Virus record (IMG/VR): IMGVR_UViG_3300029571_000009
Span: 1 to 64,000 of that record
Strand: one strand, 5' to 3'
Length of the DNA: 64,000 nt
Source of the DNA: a virus
This document shows, in pieces, positions 7,146 to 54,527 of this stretch; position 1 is the stretch's first letter; each line of letters begins with the position of its first letter. The position numbers and the translations under genes were made by a program. The notes under the pieces are model-generated. The model saw only the letters and a list, made by a program, of their open reading frames with translations, was not told the DNA's origin and did not search any database.

Positions 7146-8315
7146 CTATCCGTTGTGTTTTAATAAATACTCCCTCGAAACATTTTTAAAACTTTTTTGC
7201 CCTGAAATATCTCTGTATACAAATCCCTCTCTCTTAACCTTTGGATTTAATTCACTATATCCATCAGCTTCAAGTTTCATCTCTTCCATAGTCTTAGGTA
7301 ACTCATAAGCCGTATCAATAATTGGCACACTTGTTAATCCATGGCTCTTACAGAAATCAGCCATTTCTACAGTTCCCAGTCTTGTACCATCAATAATCAG
7401 ATTGAATACAAATAACTTATTCTCCGTAAATTTATATGGATTTCCCTGAACCGAGCCAACTCCTTCACCTTGTAACACAACTCTGTTATAGTCATTCTCT
7501 GTTGCAAACTGCGTAAGAATCTTTTCAATGTCATATTTATCAGCCAATTCCCAATAAATATTTGACTCGTGATAACAAGCCTGTTCTCTATCAGCCTGCC
7601 TTACATTTCTACTGCATACGATAAAATCAAATTTGTTCTTGCCCTTCTTCAATCTATCAACTGCAAATGTGCAGCTTGTACCATCGCATTTCTCAGTCTT
7701 AATCCACTTTTCTGTACTCTGAAGATAAAATGGTGCATTCTCAATTCTTGTCTCATCTGTTTTGACAATCCAATCTGGAAACTTCTTTGGATTATCTTTC
7801 TTGCGACCAAACAATAGAAACATAATCTTACGACCAATGCTGTATCTCATAATCCTTCTTACAATTGGGTTAGCGAATAACTTTGGTCTACGCTTTGCCA
7901 TTGACTTATATTTAGCATTTGGATCAATCTTATTAGTCTTTCTTGCTGCATCCTCTTCTGAAGCATATGTAATCTTCAAAGCTTCTGTAACATCATCACC
8001 AATATTTCTATCCTGTAATTCTGGGAAAAGTGATAATGGTAAGGCTAATCCCTGGCTAATTACTTTGAACTTGCCAAGTTTCATAGTCTTAACTTTGAAT
8101 TTCTTATTTGCCAAAAATGCGAATCTCTCATCTGTTTCAGGACACTTGCTGTCAATTTCGATATAAACAGCCATATCTCCTACATTAAACTCGCCTTTCT
8201 TAGCGATGCAAACCCATCCTAAAACTCCAATGAGTTCAATATTATCAGCTCCTTCAATCGGTCTGATCCACTCAATTTTTTCTACATGTGCTAATGCTCT
8301 CTCTTTGTTCTCCAA
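7146..8315 (-). CDS. ATP-dependent RNA ligase, Rnl5/DraRnl-like (N-terminal OB domain plus adenylyltransferase)
   Basis: nucleotidyltransferase motif I KCDGTS, motif III VLQGEGVG, motif IV REGFVYRD; N-terminal tRNA-binding-like OB segment IEGADNIELIGVLGWVCIAKKGEF. Confidence 0.7.
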   Translation of the reverse strand: MENKERALAHVEKIEWIRPIEGADNIELIGVLGWVCIAKKGEFNVGDMAVYIEIDSKCPETDERFAFLANKKFKVKTMKLGKFKVISQGLALPLSLFPELQDRNIGDDVTEALKITYASEEDAARKTNKIDPNAKYKSMAKRRPKLFANPIVRRIMRYSIGRKIMFLLFGRKKDNPKKFPDWIVKTDETRIENAPFYLQSTEKWIKTEKCDGTSCTFAVDRLKKGKNKFDFIVCSRNVRQADREQACYHESNIYWELADKYDIEKILTQFATENDYNRVVLQGEGVGSVQGNPYKFTENKLFVFNLIIDGTRLGTVEMADFCKSHGLTSVPIIDTAYELPKTMEEMKLEADGYSELNPKVKREGFVYRDISGQKSFKNVSREYLLKHNG

Positions 8316-12777: not shown

Positions 12778-13521
12778 TTAGAAATTTGGATAGAATGAAG
12801 GCATAAGCTGAAGCTTGAATAAATTCTTCTCATGCATTGAATCAATCTTCGCTTTTACATCCTCATCATTAATCTCTCCTGTTCTGATATACCTATCAAG
12901 AGTGTCATAAGTGAATCCAAGGTTGTCCTCGTCAGTCTTTCCACAAAGACCGTCAGTAGGTGTCTTATCTACTAACTCAGATGGAAGTCCTAATTCACGA
13001 CCAATCGCCTTAACTTCCGAAACTGTGAGCTGCGATAGTGGACTGAAATCACCTGCTGCGTCTCCATATCTGGTAGCATATCCTACCCAATCCTCTGAAA
13101 GATTACATGTATTTGCAACACGACCATTGATTGTCTGAGATACTGCATAAAGTGTAGCCATTCTGATACGAGCAGGAAGGTTTGTTGTTGTTTGTATAGA
13201 TAAATTTTCGTCTAATGATGTTTTAATTTCATATTCAGCAACATTAACAATTGTTCCAATTGGAATGATCGTTCGAGGAATATCTAAAAAGTTGCATAGC
13301 ATATGACTATATTCGATATCAGATTGTCTTCCCTGCGGCATAAGTACACCAAACACTCTATCTTTCCCAAGAGCTTCTACACACAGAGCAGCTACAACGC
13401 TTGAGTCCTTACCTCCTGAAATTCCAACTACTGCATTACAATCCTTACCATTCTTATCAAACCAATCTCTGATCCACTGTACTACTTCGTTCTTTACTGT
13501 CTTTACATCAAAATTACTCAT
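12778..13521 (-). CDS. nadE: NH3-dependent NAD+ synthetase
   Basis: PP-loop signature GISGGKDSS; 247 aa, typical NadE size and layout. Confidence 0.8.
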   Translation of the reverse strand: MSNFDVKTVKNEVVQWIRDWFDKNGKDCNAVVGISGGKDSSVVAALCVEALGKDRVFGVLMPQGRQSDIEYSHMLCNFLDIPRTIIPIGTIVNVAEYEIKTSLDENLSIQTTTNLPARIRMATLYAVSQTINGRVANTCNLSEDWVGYATRYGDAAGDFSPLSQLTVSEVKAIGRELGLPSELVDKTPTDGLCGKTDEDNLGFTYDTLDRYIRTGEINDEDVKAKIDSMHEKNLFKLQLMPSFYPNF

Positions 13522-13960
13522 GTTTTATCTCTCCTTTTTCAATCTTCTCAATCAATGTAAGTAATTCATTGTATACCTGAATTAAACCGCCTCTGTCATC
13601 AATATAAACATTTGCATATATTTTTCTACCTGCAAAAGCTACAGATGCGTCACAATTGATACCTCTATACTTGATATTGTTGTCCTTTAGATACTGCTCA
13701 ATCATTCCGTATTTATCTTCACCATTCCCAGTAAAAATAATTATCTCTGAATAATTCTCCCATCTTTGTAAAAGATTAATGACATTCTCATATGTCCTAC
13801 CCTTCTTATGGAAATCATAAATCGTATCATCGAAATCTACACAAAAGATAAGCCTGCCATATTTCTTAAATTCTTCCTCTAATCTATTGTAGGAATTATT
13901 GGCTTGAAGATAAAAATCCATATTACTTTCCTCCATACATTCTGTTCCTAATGTCCTCAA
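13514..13960 (-). CDS. HAD-superfamily phosphatase (possible nucleotidase)
   Basis: HAD motif I CVDFDDTIYD. Confidence 0.5.
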   Translation of the reverse strand: MRTLGTECMEESNMDFYLQANNSYNRLEEEFKKYGRLIFCVDFDDTIYDFHKKGRTYENVINLLQRWENYSEIIIFTGNGEDKYGMIEQYLKDNNIKYRGINCDASVAFAGRKIYANVYIDDRGGLIQVYNELLTLIEKIEKGEIKHE

Positions 13961-15383
13961 ATGTATCCTCTCTTACTAATTCTCCATTCTTGAATACAGT
14001 TGTAAGCAAACTATCTTCATTCATATCGAGTAACTGATCCTGACACTTCAGTTCTCCATCTTCTTCATATACTTTGCAACACCCCTTATGAGATTTCTTT
14101 AAATGGCTTGTATCAGTCTTCGGATCTTTGAAGATCATAAGCCTCTTACCATCAATAACTCCATAAGTAGCCTTCATTGCAATTCCAAAAGTATCTCTTG
14201 TAACAACAATCATCTTTCCATTCTCGACAATAGCTGTAAAACAAAATGCACCTACACCATAAGCAATGTTATTAGCTGCAAATCCACGCCTTTCTAACTC
14301 TCTCCAAATAGTCTCTACATTAGAAAGAGTACATCCGTCACCATAGATAATACCAATATGAGGATCTAACACCTTATAACCCTTACCGTTGATAGAACCA
14401 CCAAAGATATCCCATAATCTTTCTACTGTCTTAACTGAAATCTCTACAATATCACCACTGTCAGGACGAACAAGCAACTTGCCATTGTGATTCATAATCT
14501 CTTCCTTACACTGTGGAAGAATATTGTTTACCATATTCCAATAATCATAGGTATCTGAAACCATACTAAATGAAGTATTTGGATATAATTCTGTAAGTAA
14601 TCTCTTAACGAATGTAATCTCATCACCATCAATTGAGTAATTTGCTCCCATTACGGAATGCTCTGTTGATACTGCACCAATTCCAATACCACTATTCTTA
14701 CAATCAGCATTGTAATATTTATCAATATATGTAATGGCAGGAATAGTTGAAGTCTTATTGAAAGATAATAACCATGAAGCAGAACATCTTGTAGCTTCGT
14801 CCATACAAGACATACCTCTCATACCAAAATCGGCACAAGCCATATTGCCAGGTAAACCGTCTGTTGTTTTGTTATACCAATAATCTGCAATCTCACGATA
14901 CATATGACCAATAGTTGCGTGACAGCAAGGCTTCCATAATTCAACCTGAAGGATACACTCAATCCACTGAACAAGCCATGCAAATTTGTCATCTGTATTG
15001 GTAATTTCAATACAAGGAACTCCCATTGGTACAAGTGTTCCCTCTGGTAAAGCTCTAATTTTAAGTGGCAGATAACCAAGTCTGTGAAGTTCTACAATCT
15101 TCTCTAAGTCGTAATTATCTCTGCCAATCTGCACATCCATTGAATCTGTATAAAGAGATAACATCTCATTCTCTGATAATTCAAAGAAATTCTTCTGGAA
15201 ATATCCCATTAGATATTCCTTAATAAAAGCCTGTAATCCGAAGAAAACCATATGATTCTGATTTTCCAACATTGATTTACGAGGCACCCAATATGAGACT
15301 AACTTAGTTAATCCCTTTGGGTACATACGATCATGACACTGCTTATAAGTATCACTAAGTAATAAAGCCATTGTGTTATCCAT
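13923..15383 (-). CDS. nicotinamide phosphoribosyltransferase-like enzyme (NadV/NAMPT family; alternatively a Namat-type nicotinamide ADP-ribose transferase)
   Basis: about 486 aa; N-terminus MDNTMALLLSDTYKQCHDRMYP is typical of the NAMPT family; start moved to the internal ATG at 15383, which has a GGAGG RBS and avoids overlapping the upstream gene. Confidence 0.75.
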   Translation of the reverse strand: MDNTMALLLSDTYKQCHDRMYPKGLTKLVSYWVPRKSMLENQNHMVFFGLQAFIKEYLMGYFQKNFFELSENEMLSLYTDSMDVQIGRDNYDLEKIVELHRLGYLPLKIRALPEGTLVPMGVPCIEITNTDDKFAWLVQWIECILQVELWKPCCHATIGHMYREIADYWYNKTTDGLPGNMACADFGMRGMSCMDEATRCSASWLLSFNKTSTIPAITYIDKYYNADCKNSGIGIGAVSTEHSVMGANYSIDGDEITFVKRLLTELYPNTSFSMVSDTYDYWNMVNNILPQCKEEIMNHNGKLLVRPDSGDIVEISVKTVERLWDIFGGSINGKGYKVLDPHIGIIYGDGCTLSNVETIWRELERRGFAANNIAYGVGAFCFTAIVENGKMIVVTRDTFGIAMKATYGVIDGKRLMIFKDPKTDTSHLKKSHKGCCKVYEEDGELKCQDQLLDMNEDSLLTTVFKNGELVREDTFEDIRNRMYGGK

Positions 15384-15387
15384 AATT

Positions 15388-16224
15388 TTAAACCTCCATA
15401 ACTGTAATCTTTTCATGACTACCATTAAACAAACTGTTTGTAGTAAATAATCTGTTCACTGTATTATTCTCCAAAGACTTGATCAACGTTCCTTTTTCTT
15501 TATCAAGAATTGAATTCTCTGTATGTGTTGCATACGCATAAATCTCAGTTACACCATGTTTCTTTAATTCTTCTGCGCTATAATAAAGTGAACCGCCATA
15601 TGCGATAATATCATCAATCATTAACACAGCTTTGTCCTTCAAATCAATACCATTTGTTATAATGTCTAATCCAAGGATTTTGCCAGTCTTCCAATCTCTT
15701 TTCTTTTCACCATAACAATATGGTAACTCAGGGAATAAATCTGAATATCTCTTAGCTGCACCTGCGTCTGGGAAATAAAGTACAAGATTTCTCATGCCAA
15801 TCTTTGAAATAGCTTTATCAACATACTCTTTTGGATTTTCTTTTACACAATTATTGAGTAATGCAGTAGAAACATCGCTATGAGCATCTAAAACATAAAC
15901 TGATGAAAATCCTAACCAATTGATAAAATCGCAAAAATACTTCAATGTGAATACTTCATCATCATTTTTTACTCTATCCATTCGTGCATTAGGAATATAT
16001 GGAAGATATAAATAATAATCCACATTAGTAAAAAATCTTTCAAGATGTTTCCTTACTAACATCAGATAAAACATCTCATCGTTACTCTCATAAATCCATT
16101 CAATCCAAATGCAAGGAGAGCCATCATAAGTGTCTTCCTCAATGTTGTTTGTATCAATATTTACTCTTGGTGTTCCATCTGGGAACTTGTTGATTGCTAC
16201 AATTTCACCATTAATTTTAATCAT
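15388..16224 (-). CDS. ribose-phosphate pyrophosphokinase-like (Prs; alternatively an Adps-type ADP-ribose pyrophosphokinase)
   Basis: FPDGTPRVNI (Prs N-terminal motif) and PRTase-type DDIIAYGGSL; 5 nt upstream of the NAMPT-like gene. Confidence 0.7.
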   Translation of the reverse strand: MIKINGEIVAINKFPDGTPRVNIDTNNIEEDTYDGSPCIWIEWIYESNDEMFYLMLVRKHLERFFTNVDYYLYLPYIPNARMDRVKNDDEVFTLKYFCDFINWLGFSSVYVLDAHSDVSTALLNNCVKENPKEYVDKAISKIGMRNLVLYFPDAGAAKRYSDLFPELPYCYGEKKRDWKTGKILGLDIITNGIDLKDKAVLMIDDIIAYGGSLYYSAEELKKHGVTEIYAYATHTENSILDKEKGTLIKSLENNTVNRLFTTNSLFNGSHEKITVMEV

Positions 16225-16227
16225 ATT

Positions 16228-16740
16228 CTACTCTCCAATCACGTTAATCTGACACATCTTCATTGTCTCTAATGCAGCCTTATGCGTCTCAGGTGTAACA
16301 CCTGCACAGCAACTTGCATCCACTGTAATATCAATATTAGGATAATTTGCTCTAATCATAAGTGCATTTGACACTACACAAATGTCTGTACAAAGACCAC
16401 AAACTTCTACTTCTGTAAAATCAAAATCATCCCAATGTGTCCATCCGAAAGTCGGCTTATCAATAACTACGTCATTCTCAATATCAAAATCTAACTTATC
16501 TGAAATCTGCCATCCGATTGTATTTTTTACACAATGGACAACTGGGAGATGCTTTCCTTCATATGTTTCTAAATAATTATTTGGGTGTGTATCTCTTGTA
16601 AAAATTACACTATCACCATTTTCTCTGTACTCCTTGATTTTCTTTGCCACATTAAGTACAATACTCTGTGCTTCATTTGTGCCAAGTGAGCCATCAATAA
16701 AGTCATTCTGCATATCAATTACAATTAGTGTTTTACTCAT
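16228..16740 (-). CDS. pncA: nicotinamidase / isochorismatase-family hydrolase
   Basis: LIVIDMQNDF motif and catalytic Cys context EVCGLCTDICV. Confidence 0.65.
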   Translation of the reverse strand: MSKTLIVIDMQNDFIDGSLGTNEAQSIVLNVAKKIKEYRENGDSVIFTRDTHPNNYLETYEGKHLPVVHCVKNTIGWQISDKLDFDIENDVVIDKPTFGWTHWDDFDFTEVEVCGLCTDICVVSNALMIRANYPNIDITVDASCCAGVTPETHKAALETMKMCQINVIGE

Positions 16741-27275: not shown

Positions 27276-27306
27276 CAAGATAGAAATTTCTATATATGAT
27301 TATTCT

Positions 27307-27597
27307 CTACATACTTTCTAATAAAACTGTTTCCAGTTCGATAGAACCCCAATTATTATTTGGTTTAATATAAGCAATTGATAAAACAGAACACTCATAG
27401 CCAGGAGAATCAAATGCGTCCGTAACATCCAGCTTAAAAGAAATGTTCTTTTTAGTCAATTCCTGCTTCAGCTCGTCAACAACATCATAATAATTTTCTT
27501 CATCTTCTCTGTAACGATGATAATATTCATGTTCTTCATCAAAATACTTGTCCAAAATTTCTTCTATAATATCCATCCTTTTCACCTCACAATCCAA
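27307..27597 (-). CDS. hypothetical acidic protein
   Basis: 96 aa ORF. Confidence 0.45.
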   Translation of the reverse strand: MDCEVKRMDIIEEILDKYFDEEHEYYHRYREDEENYYDVVDELKQELTKKNISFKLDVTDAFDSPGYECSVLSIAYIKPNNNWGSIELETVLLESM

Positions 27598-27615
27598 AGA
27601 AAGAGAATTTTAATC

Positions 27616-27993
27616 CTAAAATGCAGTACCACTCTCACCCTGATTAATTTCTTTACACTTCTGATCACACTCTTCCAATGTCTTAAACAAAGAAGTCTCT
27701 CCTCTATTTCTTACATTTACATATTCTCCAACAGAATTAACTTTATATTTAATTGTGGTTACATCATTCCAAATACTAGCCACAATTCTTCTAATTTTAA
27801 CTTTATGAGGTACAACCACTGTCTGTTTACATACAATCTTCCCTGTTGTATTACACTGTTTACATGGAATTTCATATCCGTTGTAAAGAATCTTCTTTGT
27901 TCCTTTACATATTGGACAAATAATTTCTACATTTTCTCTTGCGTATGTATAACATTCTTCCCCAATTTCAAACTTATTGTCTATTGTTTTCAT
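27616..27993 (-). CDS. zinc-ribbon protein
   Basis: CPICKGT...CKQC motifs; start trimmed to the ATG at 27993, which has an AGGAGG RBS, because the longer ORF would overlap the tRNA-Lys. Confidence 0.55.
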   Translation of the reverse strand: MKTIDNKFEIGEECYTYARENVEIICPICKGTKKILYNGYEIPCKQCNTTGKIVCKQTVVVPHKVKIRRIVASIWNDVTTIKYKVNSVGEYVNVRNRGETSLFKTLEECDQKCKEINQGESGTAF

Positions 27994-28022
27994 TTTAAAA
28001 TACCTCCTAATATAATAAATAA

Positions 28023-28095
28023 TGTGCCATACGAGGTTTGAACTCGTAACATCTTGATTAAAAGTCAAGTGCTCTACCTATTGAGATAATGGCAC
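28023..28095 (-). tRNA. tRNA-Lys(UUU)
   Basis: hand-folded cloverleaf: acceptor GTGCCAT/ATGGCAC, anticodon stem CTTGA/TCAAG with loop CTTTTAA, T-arm ACGAG-TTCAAAC-CTCGT, D-loop AATAGGTA; U10-C25 mismatch in the D-stem; no encoded CCA. Confidence 0.7.
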
Positions 28096-28099
28096 ACAG

Positions 28100-28171
28100 C
28101 TAGGATGGTGGGATTCGAACCACGAATGTCAGAATCAAAATCTGATGTGTTGACCACTTCACCACATCCCA
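28100..28171 (-). tRNA. tRNA-Gln(UUG), atypical T-arm
   Basis: acceptor TGGGATG/CATCCTA with one G-U pair; anticodon stem TCAGA/TCTGA with loop TTTTGAT; D-loop AGTGGTCAA; T-arm folds only as a 4 bp stem with an 8 nt loop (GTGG-TTCGAATC-CCAC); 4 nt from the tRNA-Lys. Confidence 0.5.
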
Positions 28172-28172
28172 T

Positions 28173-28200
28173 TAGTAAGGTGTGAGTTATATCACACCTT
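28173..28200. other. perfect hairpin AAGGTGTGA-GTTATA-TCACACCTT between the SPFH gene and the tRNAs
   Basis: 9 bp inverted repeat read directly; A/T-rich flank follows on the plus strand. Confidence 0.5.
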
Positions 28201-28217
28201 TTAATTAATATTAATAA

Positions 28218-29087
28218 TTACTTATCTGTTACAACTGTATTGTTAGTTCCAGAAATAGTAACCCAACCAAATTTATTTCTTGCTTCGGCTTCCTTCATTC
28301 TTATAAGCTCATCTGTAATAGAAGAACTTAACTTATTATTCGCCTCTGCCTGTGCTTTAGCTTCGATTAACTGTGCATCAGCCTTTGCTTGTGCTTCTGC
28401 CTTAGTTACTTCTGCATCAGCCTTTGCCTTATTAATAGCTGTCTGATTATTAATTTCCTGAGTTTCGGCTGCCTGCTGTGCTGTAATCTTTGCATTAATA
28501 GCTTCCATCGTATTTTCATCTACAGTAATATTAATAAGAGATACATTTGTAATATTAATTCCATATGTAGAAAATCTTTTATTAAGATAATCTGTTAATG
28601 CTGCATTAACATTTGCTCTTTCAGAACCGAGAATATCAGATACTTTATACTGCGCCACGACTTCTTTTGTCCAAGAAATGATATTAGGCTTAATAAAACT
28701 ATCTCTTACTTCCTTACCAGATTGTCCTCTAAACCTTGTAAATAAATCAGCGACCTTTTCAGTGTTGTACTGATATGTAAATGTTAAATCTAATGTCATA
28801 GCCTTACCTTCAGATGAACTAGCTGAAAAACTATCATCATCTTTAGAGTCTCCGTCCTTACCTGCTGTAAGATATGACTGTTCTAAGCTTACAGAATATA
28901 ATGTAGTCTTTACTGTGGGTGACTTGAAATGCCATCCCTGTGTTAATACGTCACCTTTGATTCCACCCGACATACTGTACTGGATTGCAACATATCCCGC
29001 TGGAACACGAACTGTTGACTTAAATAAAATTATTGCTAAAAATAGTATCACTATGGCAGATACAACGCCACCTACAACTTTCTTCAT
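28218..29087 (-). CDS. SPFH/band-7 (prohibitin/HflC-like) membrane protein
   Basis: N-terminal TM helix, SPFH-like core VRVPAGYVAIQYSMSGG, C-terminal Ala/Glu/Gln-rich coiled coil. Confidence 0.7.
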   Translation of the reverse strand: MKKVVGGVVSAIVILFLAIILFKSTVRVPAGYVAIQYSMSGGIKGDVLTQGWHFKSPTVKTTLYSVSLEQSYLTAGKDGDSKDDDSFSASSSEGKAMTLDLTFTYQYNTEKVADLFTRFRGQSGKEVRDSFIKPNIISWTKEVVAQYKVSDILGSERANVNAALTDYLNKRFSTYGINITNVSLINITVDENTMEAINAKITAQQAAETQEINNQTAINKAKADAEVTKAEAQAKADAQLIEAKAQAEANNKLSSSITDELIRMKEAEARNKFGWVTISGTNNTVVTDK

Positions 29088-29245
29088 TGTTGTTTTGTCT
29101 CCTTTTCTTCTTCGTTATTTATTTCATCTGTTACAACATCTTTTATTTTATTAATAGTAGAATTCCCTATTTTTTGAAAAAATCTTGACAGTAGAAACCA
29201 TATAATCATTAATCCAACTGCAATTAATATAAAAAATACTTCCAT
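29084..29245 (-). CDS. small single-TM protein translationally coupled to the SPFH gene
   Basis: 53 aa MEVFFILIAVGLMIIWFLLS... plus acidic tail; its TGA stop overlaps the SPFH ATG; not in the >=60 aa ORF track. Confidence 0.45.
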   Translation of the reverse strand: MEVFFILIAVGLMIIWFLLSRFFQKIGNSTINKIKDVVTDEINNEEEKETKQQ

Positions 29246-29373
29246 TTAATTATTCTCCTTTTTACTTATCATTCCATTCCATTTCCAATAGCTCATCATA
29301 TGTAGCAGCATTATCAGACAGACTCTTTTCTTTCTCTTCCAATAACTTAATACACATCTCAACAAGCTTCGGT

Positions 29374-29616
29374 TTAGAATAATTCTGTAATTGTTCTCTT
29401 AATTCTTCTTTGTTCATATCGACACCTCGTCTTAATATTATCTATATCACTTATAAGAACATCTCCACCCTTAATTACCCACATACACTGATAATCTTTC
29501 TCAGCACAGAGCTTGGTAAAATCAGCATATGATTGATACTTATCTGGCTTTGCCATAGCTCTATAACATTGTTTTCTATTCTGACAACTTTGGCTTGTAC
29601 ACATTGTTATATCCAT
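29374..29616 (-). CDS. hypothetical Cys-rich protein
   Basis: 80 aa ORF. Confidence 0.4.
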   Translation of the reverse strand: MDITMCTSQSCQNRKQCYRAMAKPDKYQSYADFTKLCAEKDYQCMWVIKGGDVLISDIDNIKTRCRYEQRRIKRTITELF

Positions 29617-52830: not shown

Positions 52831-52911
52831 ATGTGCTTGTAGGAATCGAACCTACTGATAAGTATAATGTTGTTAGCATTATATTATTCACCACATATAA
52901 GCACAAATAAG
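52831..52911 (-). ncRNA. tRNA-like element (degenerate tRNA or tRNA-derived fragment)
   Basis: perfect T-arm GTAGG-TTCGATT-CCTAC; acceptor TGTGCTT/AAGCACA; candidate anticodon stem TAATG/CATTA with loop CTAACAA (would read AAC); D-arm does not fold canonically. Confidence 0.3.
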
Positions 52912-53943: not shown

Positions 53944-54047
53944 AACCCTATCTTGACGAAAATGTAAGTCAAAAATAGGGTTGATGATGGAGAACCCATC
54001 ACAAAATGATGATGTAGATTTTGTGACCTACCCACTCAAAGAGTGGG
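53944..54047. other. cluster of three perfect hairpins inside the ORF-free 52.9-54.1 kb island
   Basis: H1 AACCCTA...TAGGGTT with nested TTGAC...GTCAA (53944-53982); H2 TCACAAAAT-gatgatgtag-ATTTTGTGA (53999-54026); H3 CCCACTC-aaa-GAGTGGG (54031-54047). Confidence 0.5.
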
Positions 54048-54089
54048 TAACGCACTAGGCTTGACACGGTTTATACTCGCCTAGTCGAG

Positions 54090-54527
54090 TTATTTAACCA
54101 TACGGCTCTGCTGATTATCCATGAATTTTGTAGCATCTTCAGCAGACTTGAACTCGTAAATCTGCACATACTTGTCATCCTTTGCAAGTGCGTCATATGT
54201 CTTGTTGCCCTTGCCAAGCTTAGTTGCACCAAAGTCTTCGGTCGCAGACATCTTGATGGCAAACCTAGCCTTGCTTGACAGAAATGCACCCTTGATTGTA
54301 CGGACGAACTTGCCATCGCACTCAAGAGAGCCGACAATCCGTGTAGACTTCTTAGATGCTGTCTTAGGCTCTGACTTAGGTGTTGTGTCTTTAGGTGTCT
54401 CTGTCTTAGGCTGTTCAACTGCTCCAAGTCCTAAGAGTTTAGCGATTTTCTGTGCTTCTGTAGCGTTAATCTGATAAGCTACTCCATTAACGATAACTGC
54501 ATTCTTTAATTCTTTCATAATTACCAA
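54090..54527 (-). CDS. hypothetical protein; first gene of the leftward block, GC-richer than its neighbours
   Basis: 145 aa ORF; track start is TTG, an in-frame ATG lies at 54516 (MKELKN...); alternative frame 54071..54427 rejected. Confidence 0.5.
   Translation of the reverse strand: MVIMKELKNAVIVNGVAYQINATEAQKIAKLLGLGAVEQPKTETPKDTTPKSEPKTASKKSTRIVGSLECDGKFVRTIKGAFLSSKARFAIKMSATEDFGATKLGKGNKTYDALAKDDKYVQIYEFKSAEDATKFMDNQQSRMVK

Follow-up and report, generated by a model that had tools for sequence, protein, structure and literature searches.

Unusual stems in a tRNA-Gln/tRNA-Lys pair of a prophage-like Lachnospira eligens virus probably reflect decay of an accessory cassette

We analyzed a pair of tRNA genes within a window of 64,000 nucleotides, the stretch from position 1 to 64,000 of the IMG/VR virus record IMGVR_UViG_3300029571_000009. 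The initial annotation of this DNA, made from its letters alone, described two minus-strand tRNAs 4 nt apart, and both ARAGORN and the Rfam model RF00005 bear this out: tRNA-Gln(UUG), of 72 nt, lies at 28100..28171 and tRNA-Lys(UUU), of 73 nt, at 28023..28095, separated by the spacer CUGU at 28096..28099 (all on the minus strand; spacer from the Rfam coordinates and the sequence). Both RF00005 matches span model positions 1-71, with 66.0 bits (E=3.9e-12) for tRNA-Lys and 53.5 bits (E=1.1e-8) for tRNA-Gln. Where the annotation had allowed for covariance scores below a pseudogene threshold, we found both genes far above the Rfam gathering score of 29 bits; the 53.5 bits of tRNA-Gln come from the general Rfam model and are not the tRNAscan-SE pseudogene measure, which calls for a total under 55 bits together with low sub-scores for primary or secondary structure.

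Each gene departs from the full 7/4/5/5 bp cloverleaf pairing at one place, and the other stems are intact. In tRNA-Lys, the cmscan alignment flags the 10-25 pair as non-standard, with U10 (28086, minus strand) standing opposite C25 (28071), precisely the mismatch that had been noted. In tRNA-Gln, the same program finds the 5' strand of the T stem short of one base, a G of the G51-G53 run, and the family alignment has its sole gap at this position. The resulting T arm (GUGG-UUCGAAUC-CCAC, 28108..28123, minus strand; cmscan and family alignments) measures 16 nt compared with the usual 17, with the 4-bp stem and 8-nt loop expected from the first reading, and since it is one base short, the near-universal G53-C61 pair cannot form. 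All of U8, A14, G18-G19, U33, U54-U55-C56, A58, and G53-C61 are present in tRNA-Lys, and tRNA-Gln has the same conserved tertiary set except for G53-C61. Acceptor stems and anticodon arms are intact in both molecules. The anticodon loops, CUUUUAA in tRNA-Lys and UUUUGAU in tRNA-Gln, are ones that we take, by comparison with E. coli, to be canonical for bacteria, and the 3' strand of the tRNA-Lys anticodon stem reads U39 C40 A41 A42 G43. The isotype identity features are as expected (A73 in tRNA-Lys; U1-A72 and G73 in tRNA-Gln), and CCA is encoded by neither gene.

The window has 31% G+C, and nearly all of its genes are small and located on the minus strand. Directly upstream of the tRNA cassette lies an SPFH/prohibitin-family gene (28218..29087, minus strand), which anchors the cassette in all relatives. 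On the other side, 30 nt past tRNA-Lys, is the start of a 125-aa zinc-ribbon gene with an AGGAGG ribosome-binding site (27616..27993, minus strand), a marker of the sub-lineage that bears U10. A conserved 9-bp hairpin without a U tract (28177..28200, minus strand; -12.7 kcal/mol, z=-4.4) ends 5 nt 5' of tRNA-Gln. It occupies the same position in L004-L047, with 7-9 bp and again without a U tract, and its pairing is maintained in relatives whose stems differ (GGUGUGA, GGGCGUAG, GGUGUGG, and GGGUGUAG). This hairpin may represent the 3' end of the SPFH mRNA or a processing element for co-transcribed tRNAs. Consensus scans of 27300-29600 detected no terminator-like site and no more promoter-like matches than in shuffled sequence, so the tRNAs are likely expressed by co-transcription with the adjoining genes.

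Elsewhere, the window encodes at least seven DNA methyltransferases, two tyrosine recombinases, ParB-like proteins, and a sigma-factor-like protein. A cluster at 12778-16740 (minus strand), comprising an NAD synthase, a NAMPT-like phosphoribosyltransferase, a PRTase-like protein, and an isochorismatase/nicotinamidase-like protein, resembles the NAD+-reconstitution sets that phages use in counter-defence. An RNA ligase of the Rnl5/NgrRnl type with an N-terminal OB domain (7146-8315, minus strand; PF21189 and PF09414) is located 20 kb from the tRNA pair and is closest to the Naegleria gruberi Rnl5 ligase NgrRnl (PDB 5cot, E=1e-35). Among the 40 window ORFs of at least 120 aa, we found no polynucleotide kinase or kinase-phosphatase domain. 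Two further RNA candidates lie in the distal part of the window: a full-length Pistol self-cleaving ribozyme (54022-54090, minus strand; Rfam RF02679, 60 bits against 34.5), which directly adjoins the end of the ORF at 54090-54527, and an ARAGORN tRNA-Val(aac) call (52831-52905, minus strand), which is probably spurious, having no Rfam tRNA match even at E<=1. Codon usage across the window shows AAA as 61% of Lys codons and CAA as 42% of Gln codons, or 1.1% of all codons; this CAA share gives simple codon supply no compelling support.

A search of IMG/VR viral contigs with the SPFH protein yielded 68 loci; 44 belong to close relatives, whose contigs reach 196 kb. In a cluster look-up, the exact protein was found in Lachnospira eligens isolates (the match being named 'prohibitin family protein [Lachnospira eligens]') and also on contigs of up to 622 kb. 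Because of these exact matches, the element appears to be a large prophage-like virus of the gut bacterium L. eligens, within a family whose members measure ~110-196 kb. The region gave no megablast match to annotated phages and plasmids; the closest annotated record has an SPFH protein of only 66% amino-acid identity, with no tRNA genes close by, and a scan of species-representative bacterial genomes with the SPFH protein yielded a single distant match. The Gln-Lys pair aligns as a unit, at 72-77% identity across the two genes, to tRNA clusters of Bacillales replicons (H71-H74: Staphylococcus, Listeria, and Priestia). The two phage genes may have been acquired jointly from a tRNA operon of bacteria.

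The slot following SPFH is highly variable among the 44 close IMG/VR relatives. Its commonest content is Gln(UUG) with Lys(UUU), some relatives carry Lys(CUU), and in others Met(CAT) takes their place or another Gln lies 1.4 kb off. Several hold damaged genes, either a Lys cut off after the anticodon loop or a Gln without its 3' end; some close relatives have no detectable tRNA in the slot, and many family members lack Lys. Taken over the whole family, the cassette appears to be under purifying selection, as suggested by compensatory changes (three Gln pairs and six Lys pairs altered on both sides) and by pairwise distances of 0.07 for Gln and 0.15 for Lys, lower than the 0.30 observed at four-fold degenerate sites of the adjacent gene. 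Paired cells reached 97.8% for Gln and 94.9% for Lys, compared with ~26-48% when the 3' partners were slid by 1-3 columns. Damage is nonetheless common among the alleles themselves: a broken pair, a deletion, or a changed conserved base occurs in 10 of the 14 distinct Lys alleles and in 7 of the 18 distinct Gln alleles.

Several individual relatives deserve mention. One Gln gene (L031:4856-4928) has an anticodon, UUA, that would decode the stop codon UAA; its cloverleaf, of 65.8 bits, is intact in all other respects. The partner Lys gene (L031:4933-5005) has three broken pairs and C56A; the ORF coverage of that neighbourhood gave no sign of TAA recoding, and we dropped this idea. The GGG run of the Gln T stem (columns 51-53 of alignment A1) is altered in at least four separate ways, namely G53A, G53C, G52A, and the G deletion, the carriers being the window, L082, L098, L021, L040, L044, and L047. 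The rest of tRNA-Gln is highly conserved, and the CCC partner of the run is invariant. These separate changes at G51-G53 could reflect selection or a mutational hotspot. The slot 3' of the tRNAs, reaching to an 89-aa gene or a methylase, is hypervariable (L092-L097, L100, L101, L103, and L080) and holds, depending on the relative, a CCA-adding enzyme with an HD domain, the RNA-repair nucleotidyltransferase RlaP, a Tpt1/KptA-like gene, SIR2, DUF8224, or T4_Y16D. The window's counterpart contains the 125-aa zinc-ribbon gene only.

Neither of the window's two lesions is shared with these IMG/VR relatives: all 22 other distinct cassette versions carry G10 and GUGGG, and the exact strings of both variant alleles returned zero matches in IMG/VR and JGI metagenomes. 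We recovered the window's sub-lineage by exact-protein look-ups in ENA/Logan assemblies, which display distinct gene neighbourhoods only, such that the proportions given here are not population frequencies and deletions are biased upward. U10 was present in nine other contigs from separate assemblies. It is accompanied by an unbroken Gln GGG run in seven of them (L083, L086, L087, L089, L090, L091, and L099) and, as in the window, by the G deletion in two (L082 and L098). Two more contigs (L084 and L085) have a 71-nt deletion joining the 5' part of Gln to the 3' part of Lys, producing a hybrid with non-complementary acceptor strands and a score of 36.4 bits that ARAGORN does not report, and one (L088) has lost Lys and keeps Gln intact. 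In the lineage carrying the window's SPFH allele, G10 and the Gln GGG run are found in all nine contigs (L073-L081, 9/9).

The 251-nt segment spanning the cassette is otherwise identical in all the contigs that retain both tRNA genes, and L084 and L085 differ from the window by 1-2 mismatches over 3,260 nt of downstream flank. The SPFH alleles of the window and L082, by comparison, share only ~86% nucleotide identity. Just upstream of the SPFH operon, seven contigs (L082-L085, L091, L098, and L099) have a TnpB/Cas12f-like (IS605 OrfB) gene, and the window has at that position a 478-aa DUF262/GmrSD_N-like gene instead. This difference in upstream genes shows recombination near the SPFH 3' end. 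We also considered that the window's tRNA-Lys might itself be a recombinant chimera, and dropped this explanation: the whole cassette and the downstream block are of the L082 type, with the junction near the SPFH end.

Could the lesions simply be errors, with the missing G a miscalled homopolymer and U10 an erroneous substitution? The deletion does sit in a G run, and the absence of the variant strings from IMG/VR and JGI metagenomes would be expected of an error. The probability of such an artefact is nevertheless close to negligible, given that U10 recurs in nine and the G deletion in two other contigs, from different ENA/Logan samples and, as in L082, on a different upstream background. This recurrence shows genuine, heritable alleles rather than assembly errors, and on sequence comparison U10 and the G deletion are derived and private to one sub-lineage.

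We then assessed what the two lesions would do to the molecules. The missing G costs tRNA-Gln 12.9 bits, from 66.4 to 53.5, the reference being a GGG allele otherwise identical to the window's Gln, found in L083, L027, L035, and L045. In the nearest-neighbour model, whose minimum-free-energy (MFE) predictions leave out modifications and tertiary contacts, the deletion shifts the Gln cloverleaf from -19.8 to -16.4 kcal/mol, making it 3.4 less stable and placing it 4.8 kcal/mol above a misfolded MFE structure; G10U shifts the Lys cloverleaf from -22.7 to -18.3 kcal/mol, making it 4.4 less stable, and is predicted to allow G18 and G19 to be tied up in a competing D hairpin of 5 bp (8-12 with 17-21). 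Bacterial elongator tRNAs very rarely have an acceptor/T helix of 11 bp or lack G53-C61, and the combination should hamper cleavage by RNase P, CCA addition, and binding to EF-Tu; D stems of 3 bp are tolerated more often. We thus predict that the Gln copy is probably crippled and the Lys copy weakened.

Taken together, these observations make it probable that the accessory tRNA pair of an L. eligens prophage family is degenerating here under relaxed selection, and that the odd stems are damage, not design. The initial annotation had listed decaying pseudo-tRNAs as its alternative, and the fusion, the loss of Lys, and the costs in score and energy fit that alternative much better than nuclease resistance. 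In the course of events that we propose, an intact cassette would be co-transcribed with its flanking genes, host RNase P and enzymes of 3' processing would excise the tRNAs, a CCA-adding enzyme would supply CCA, and the finished molecules would top up the decoders for AAA/AAG and CAA/CAG. The cassette appears to be dispensable, as contigs with near-identical flanks carry the fusion (L084 and L085) and L088 is without Lys; in the window's sub-lineage, selection on it would have relaxed. G10U, common to the sub-lineage, would have come first, followed in a few genomes by slippage that removed one base from the GGG run in the T stem of Gln, and sister genomes would have undergone deletions that fused or removed tRNA genes. 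The window would now be left with a Gln copy badly impaired by its 11-bp acceptor/T helix without the G53-C61 pair and a Lys copy weakened through its shortened D stem, of 3 bp, and an alternative fold. Two findings weigh against decay: both genes still score far above the Rfam tRNA threshold, and the U10 allele is spread over many samples, from which we infer that U10 is not strongly deleterious.

The same two findings can be taken to mean that the variants are merely tolerated, with both tRNAs processed, charged, and used, the mismatch and the short T stem near-neutral, and Lys and Gln decoding supplemented. This account would also explain the intact anticodon arms, acceptor stems, and identity elements, the persistence of U10 in at least ten genomes from separate samples, and the single A·C mismatches seen in many relatives. 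It sits less easily with the 12.9-bit cost of the G deletion and a cloverleaf that is not the predicted fold, with the great rarity among bacterial elongator tRNAs of a lost G53-C61 pair in an 11-bp helix, and with contigs of near-identical flanks that delete the tRNA genes outright. On balance we regard tolerance as unlikely, if by no means far-fetched.

A use for the pair in lysogeny was likewise weighed. In tRNA-dependent lysogeny, documented for tRNA-Lys(UUU) in mycobacteriophages (PMC10865867), integration would disrupt a host tRNA-Lys or tRNA-Gln gene and the prophage copy would complement the loss. The two tyrosine recombinases are located 6-11 kb from the pair and the element is found within bacterial contigs, in keeping with such a scheme, but large contigs still contain close relatives whose tRNAs are deleted or fused, and many family members manage without Lys altogether. 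We consider this explanation exceedingly improbable.

The initial annotation favored a different reading, in which the odd stems are adaptive and protect replacement tRNAs from PrrC, PARIS, or similar tRNases, acting jointly with the RNA ligase. The choice of tRNAs fits: PrrC and AriB are known to attack tRNA-Lys(UUU), systems of this kind can be neutralised by viral tRNAs (PMC10264068, PMC12409363, PMC11555353), and the tRNAs most cut by Cas13a are those for Lys and Gln (PMC11042736). Anti-defence-type genes, among them many for methyltransferases and some for NAD+ salvage, are also plentiful in the window, and in relatives the same variable region contains genes of the tRNA-repair type. The stems themselves, however, do not sustain the proposal. 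Escape from AriB maps to U39A and A41C, beside the 40|41 cleavage site (PMC12409363), and the anticodon-loop escape model requires loop changes (PMC10264068), whereas the window's Lys retains U36AAUC|A41, identical to the cleaved E. coli sequence, has neither U39A nor A41C, and both anticodon loops are of the canonical bacterial form. The lesions fall in the D and T arms, whereas known escape substitutions are located in the anticodon arm. U10 and the G deletion are absent from every other branch of the family, and close kin lose the tRNA genes. Nor does the ligase look like the suggested partner, being of the Rnl5/NgrRnl type rather than T4 Rnl1-like, 20 kb away, and without a polynucleotide kinase among the 40 scanned ORFs. 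Because the loops are canonical, the AriB site is intact, the lesions are lineage-private, and the ligase is of this type and at this distance, the claim of stem-based resistance fails, and we hold it to be very unlikely.

A counter-defence role for the intact cassette, elsewhere in the family, is possible. The tRNA genes sit in a hypervariable accessory region, where relatives hold a CCA-adding enzyme, RlaP, a Tpt1-like gene, and SIR2. One version, which we rate as improbable, is that the intact pair counters a host tRNase depleting tRNAs with U-rich anticodons, that it works as a pair only, and that it decays after G10U. The tRNase would then be a Cas13a-like enzyme, of the kind that cuts Lys and Gln most, or a PrrC-like one; G10U would have disabled Lys and thereby rendered Gln valueless, opening the way to the G deletion, the fusion, and the loss of Lys. 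In a variant of this scenario, the lesioned RNAs, with their perfect anticodon arms, would persist as non-decoding nuclease decoys, and the repeated G52/G53 changes in the Gln T stem would be selected, not accidental.

On the reading of decay under relaxed selection, which we prefer, the object is of an ordinary kind: phage accessory tRNAs in early decay. Its value is mostly cautionary. Odd stems in phage tRNAs invite an adaptive story, and here ~50 related loci show the lesions to be fresh, in a phage family that repeatedly damages and discards the tRNA pair. These loci also form a natural series for the dispensability of phage tRNAs, running from the intact cassette through U10 to the G deletion, fusion, or loss, with near-identical flanks. 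The candidates for the cassette's original benefit are codon supply and buffering against tRNA depletion. Since the host can be grown in culture and an intact cassette is present in a related element of some isolates, the choice between codon supply and buffering against tRNA-cutting defences is experimentally approachable.

Comparison with known systems places the pair more closely. In the T4 repair of PrrC damage by Pnkp and Rnl1, as in the window, an RNA ligase occurs together with a function related to Lys(UUU). Unlike in T4, the window's ligase is Rnl5/NgrRnl-like and lies 20 kb from the tRNAs, and no kinase-phosphatase was found in the window. Ligases of the Rnl5/NgrRnl type are described as sealers of nicks in duplexes. 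The tRNA-Lys(UUU) with which T5 withstands PARIS is the same isoacceptor and likewise virus-encoded, and the window is similarly full of anti-defence genes; T5 resistance, however, consists of U39A and A41C (PMC12409363), whereas the window has the sensitive, E. coli-type U39 C40 A41 and carries its odd base in the D stem. The mycobacteriophage tRNAs with mutant anticodon loops (van den Berg et al. 2023, PMC10264068) are of isotypes targeted by host tRNases, as are those of the window, but that model rests on loop changes relative to the host, and the window's loops are, by comparison with E. coli, canonical bacterial ones.

The accessory tRNAs of T4, T5, and the cluster C1 mycobacteriophages offer a closer parallel, forming, as in the window, a small cluster in an accessory-gene operon with CCA unencoded. 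As in the accessory tRNAs of large phages generally, compensatory change maintains the cloverleaves in the window's family, and presence varies between close relatives. The window differs from the T4, T5, and cluster C1 sets in having only two genes, both lesioned, which sister genomes delete, and, with respect to supplementation of the codon and tRNA pool, in that CAA is not heavily used. With tRNA pseudogenes, the pair shares the lineage-private loss of G53-C61 and G10-C25, the fusions and truncations in close kin, and the lowered covariance scores. It is unlike dead relics in that its scores still stand at 53.5 and 66 bits, its anticodon arms are untouched, and U10 is widespread. The window's tRNA pair is thus a case of early or partial decay rather than a dead relic.
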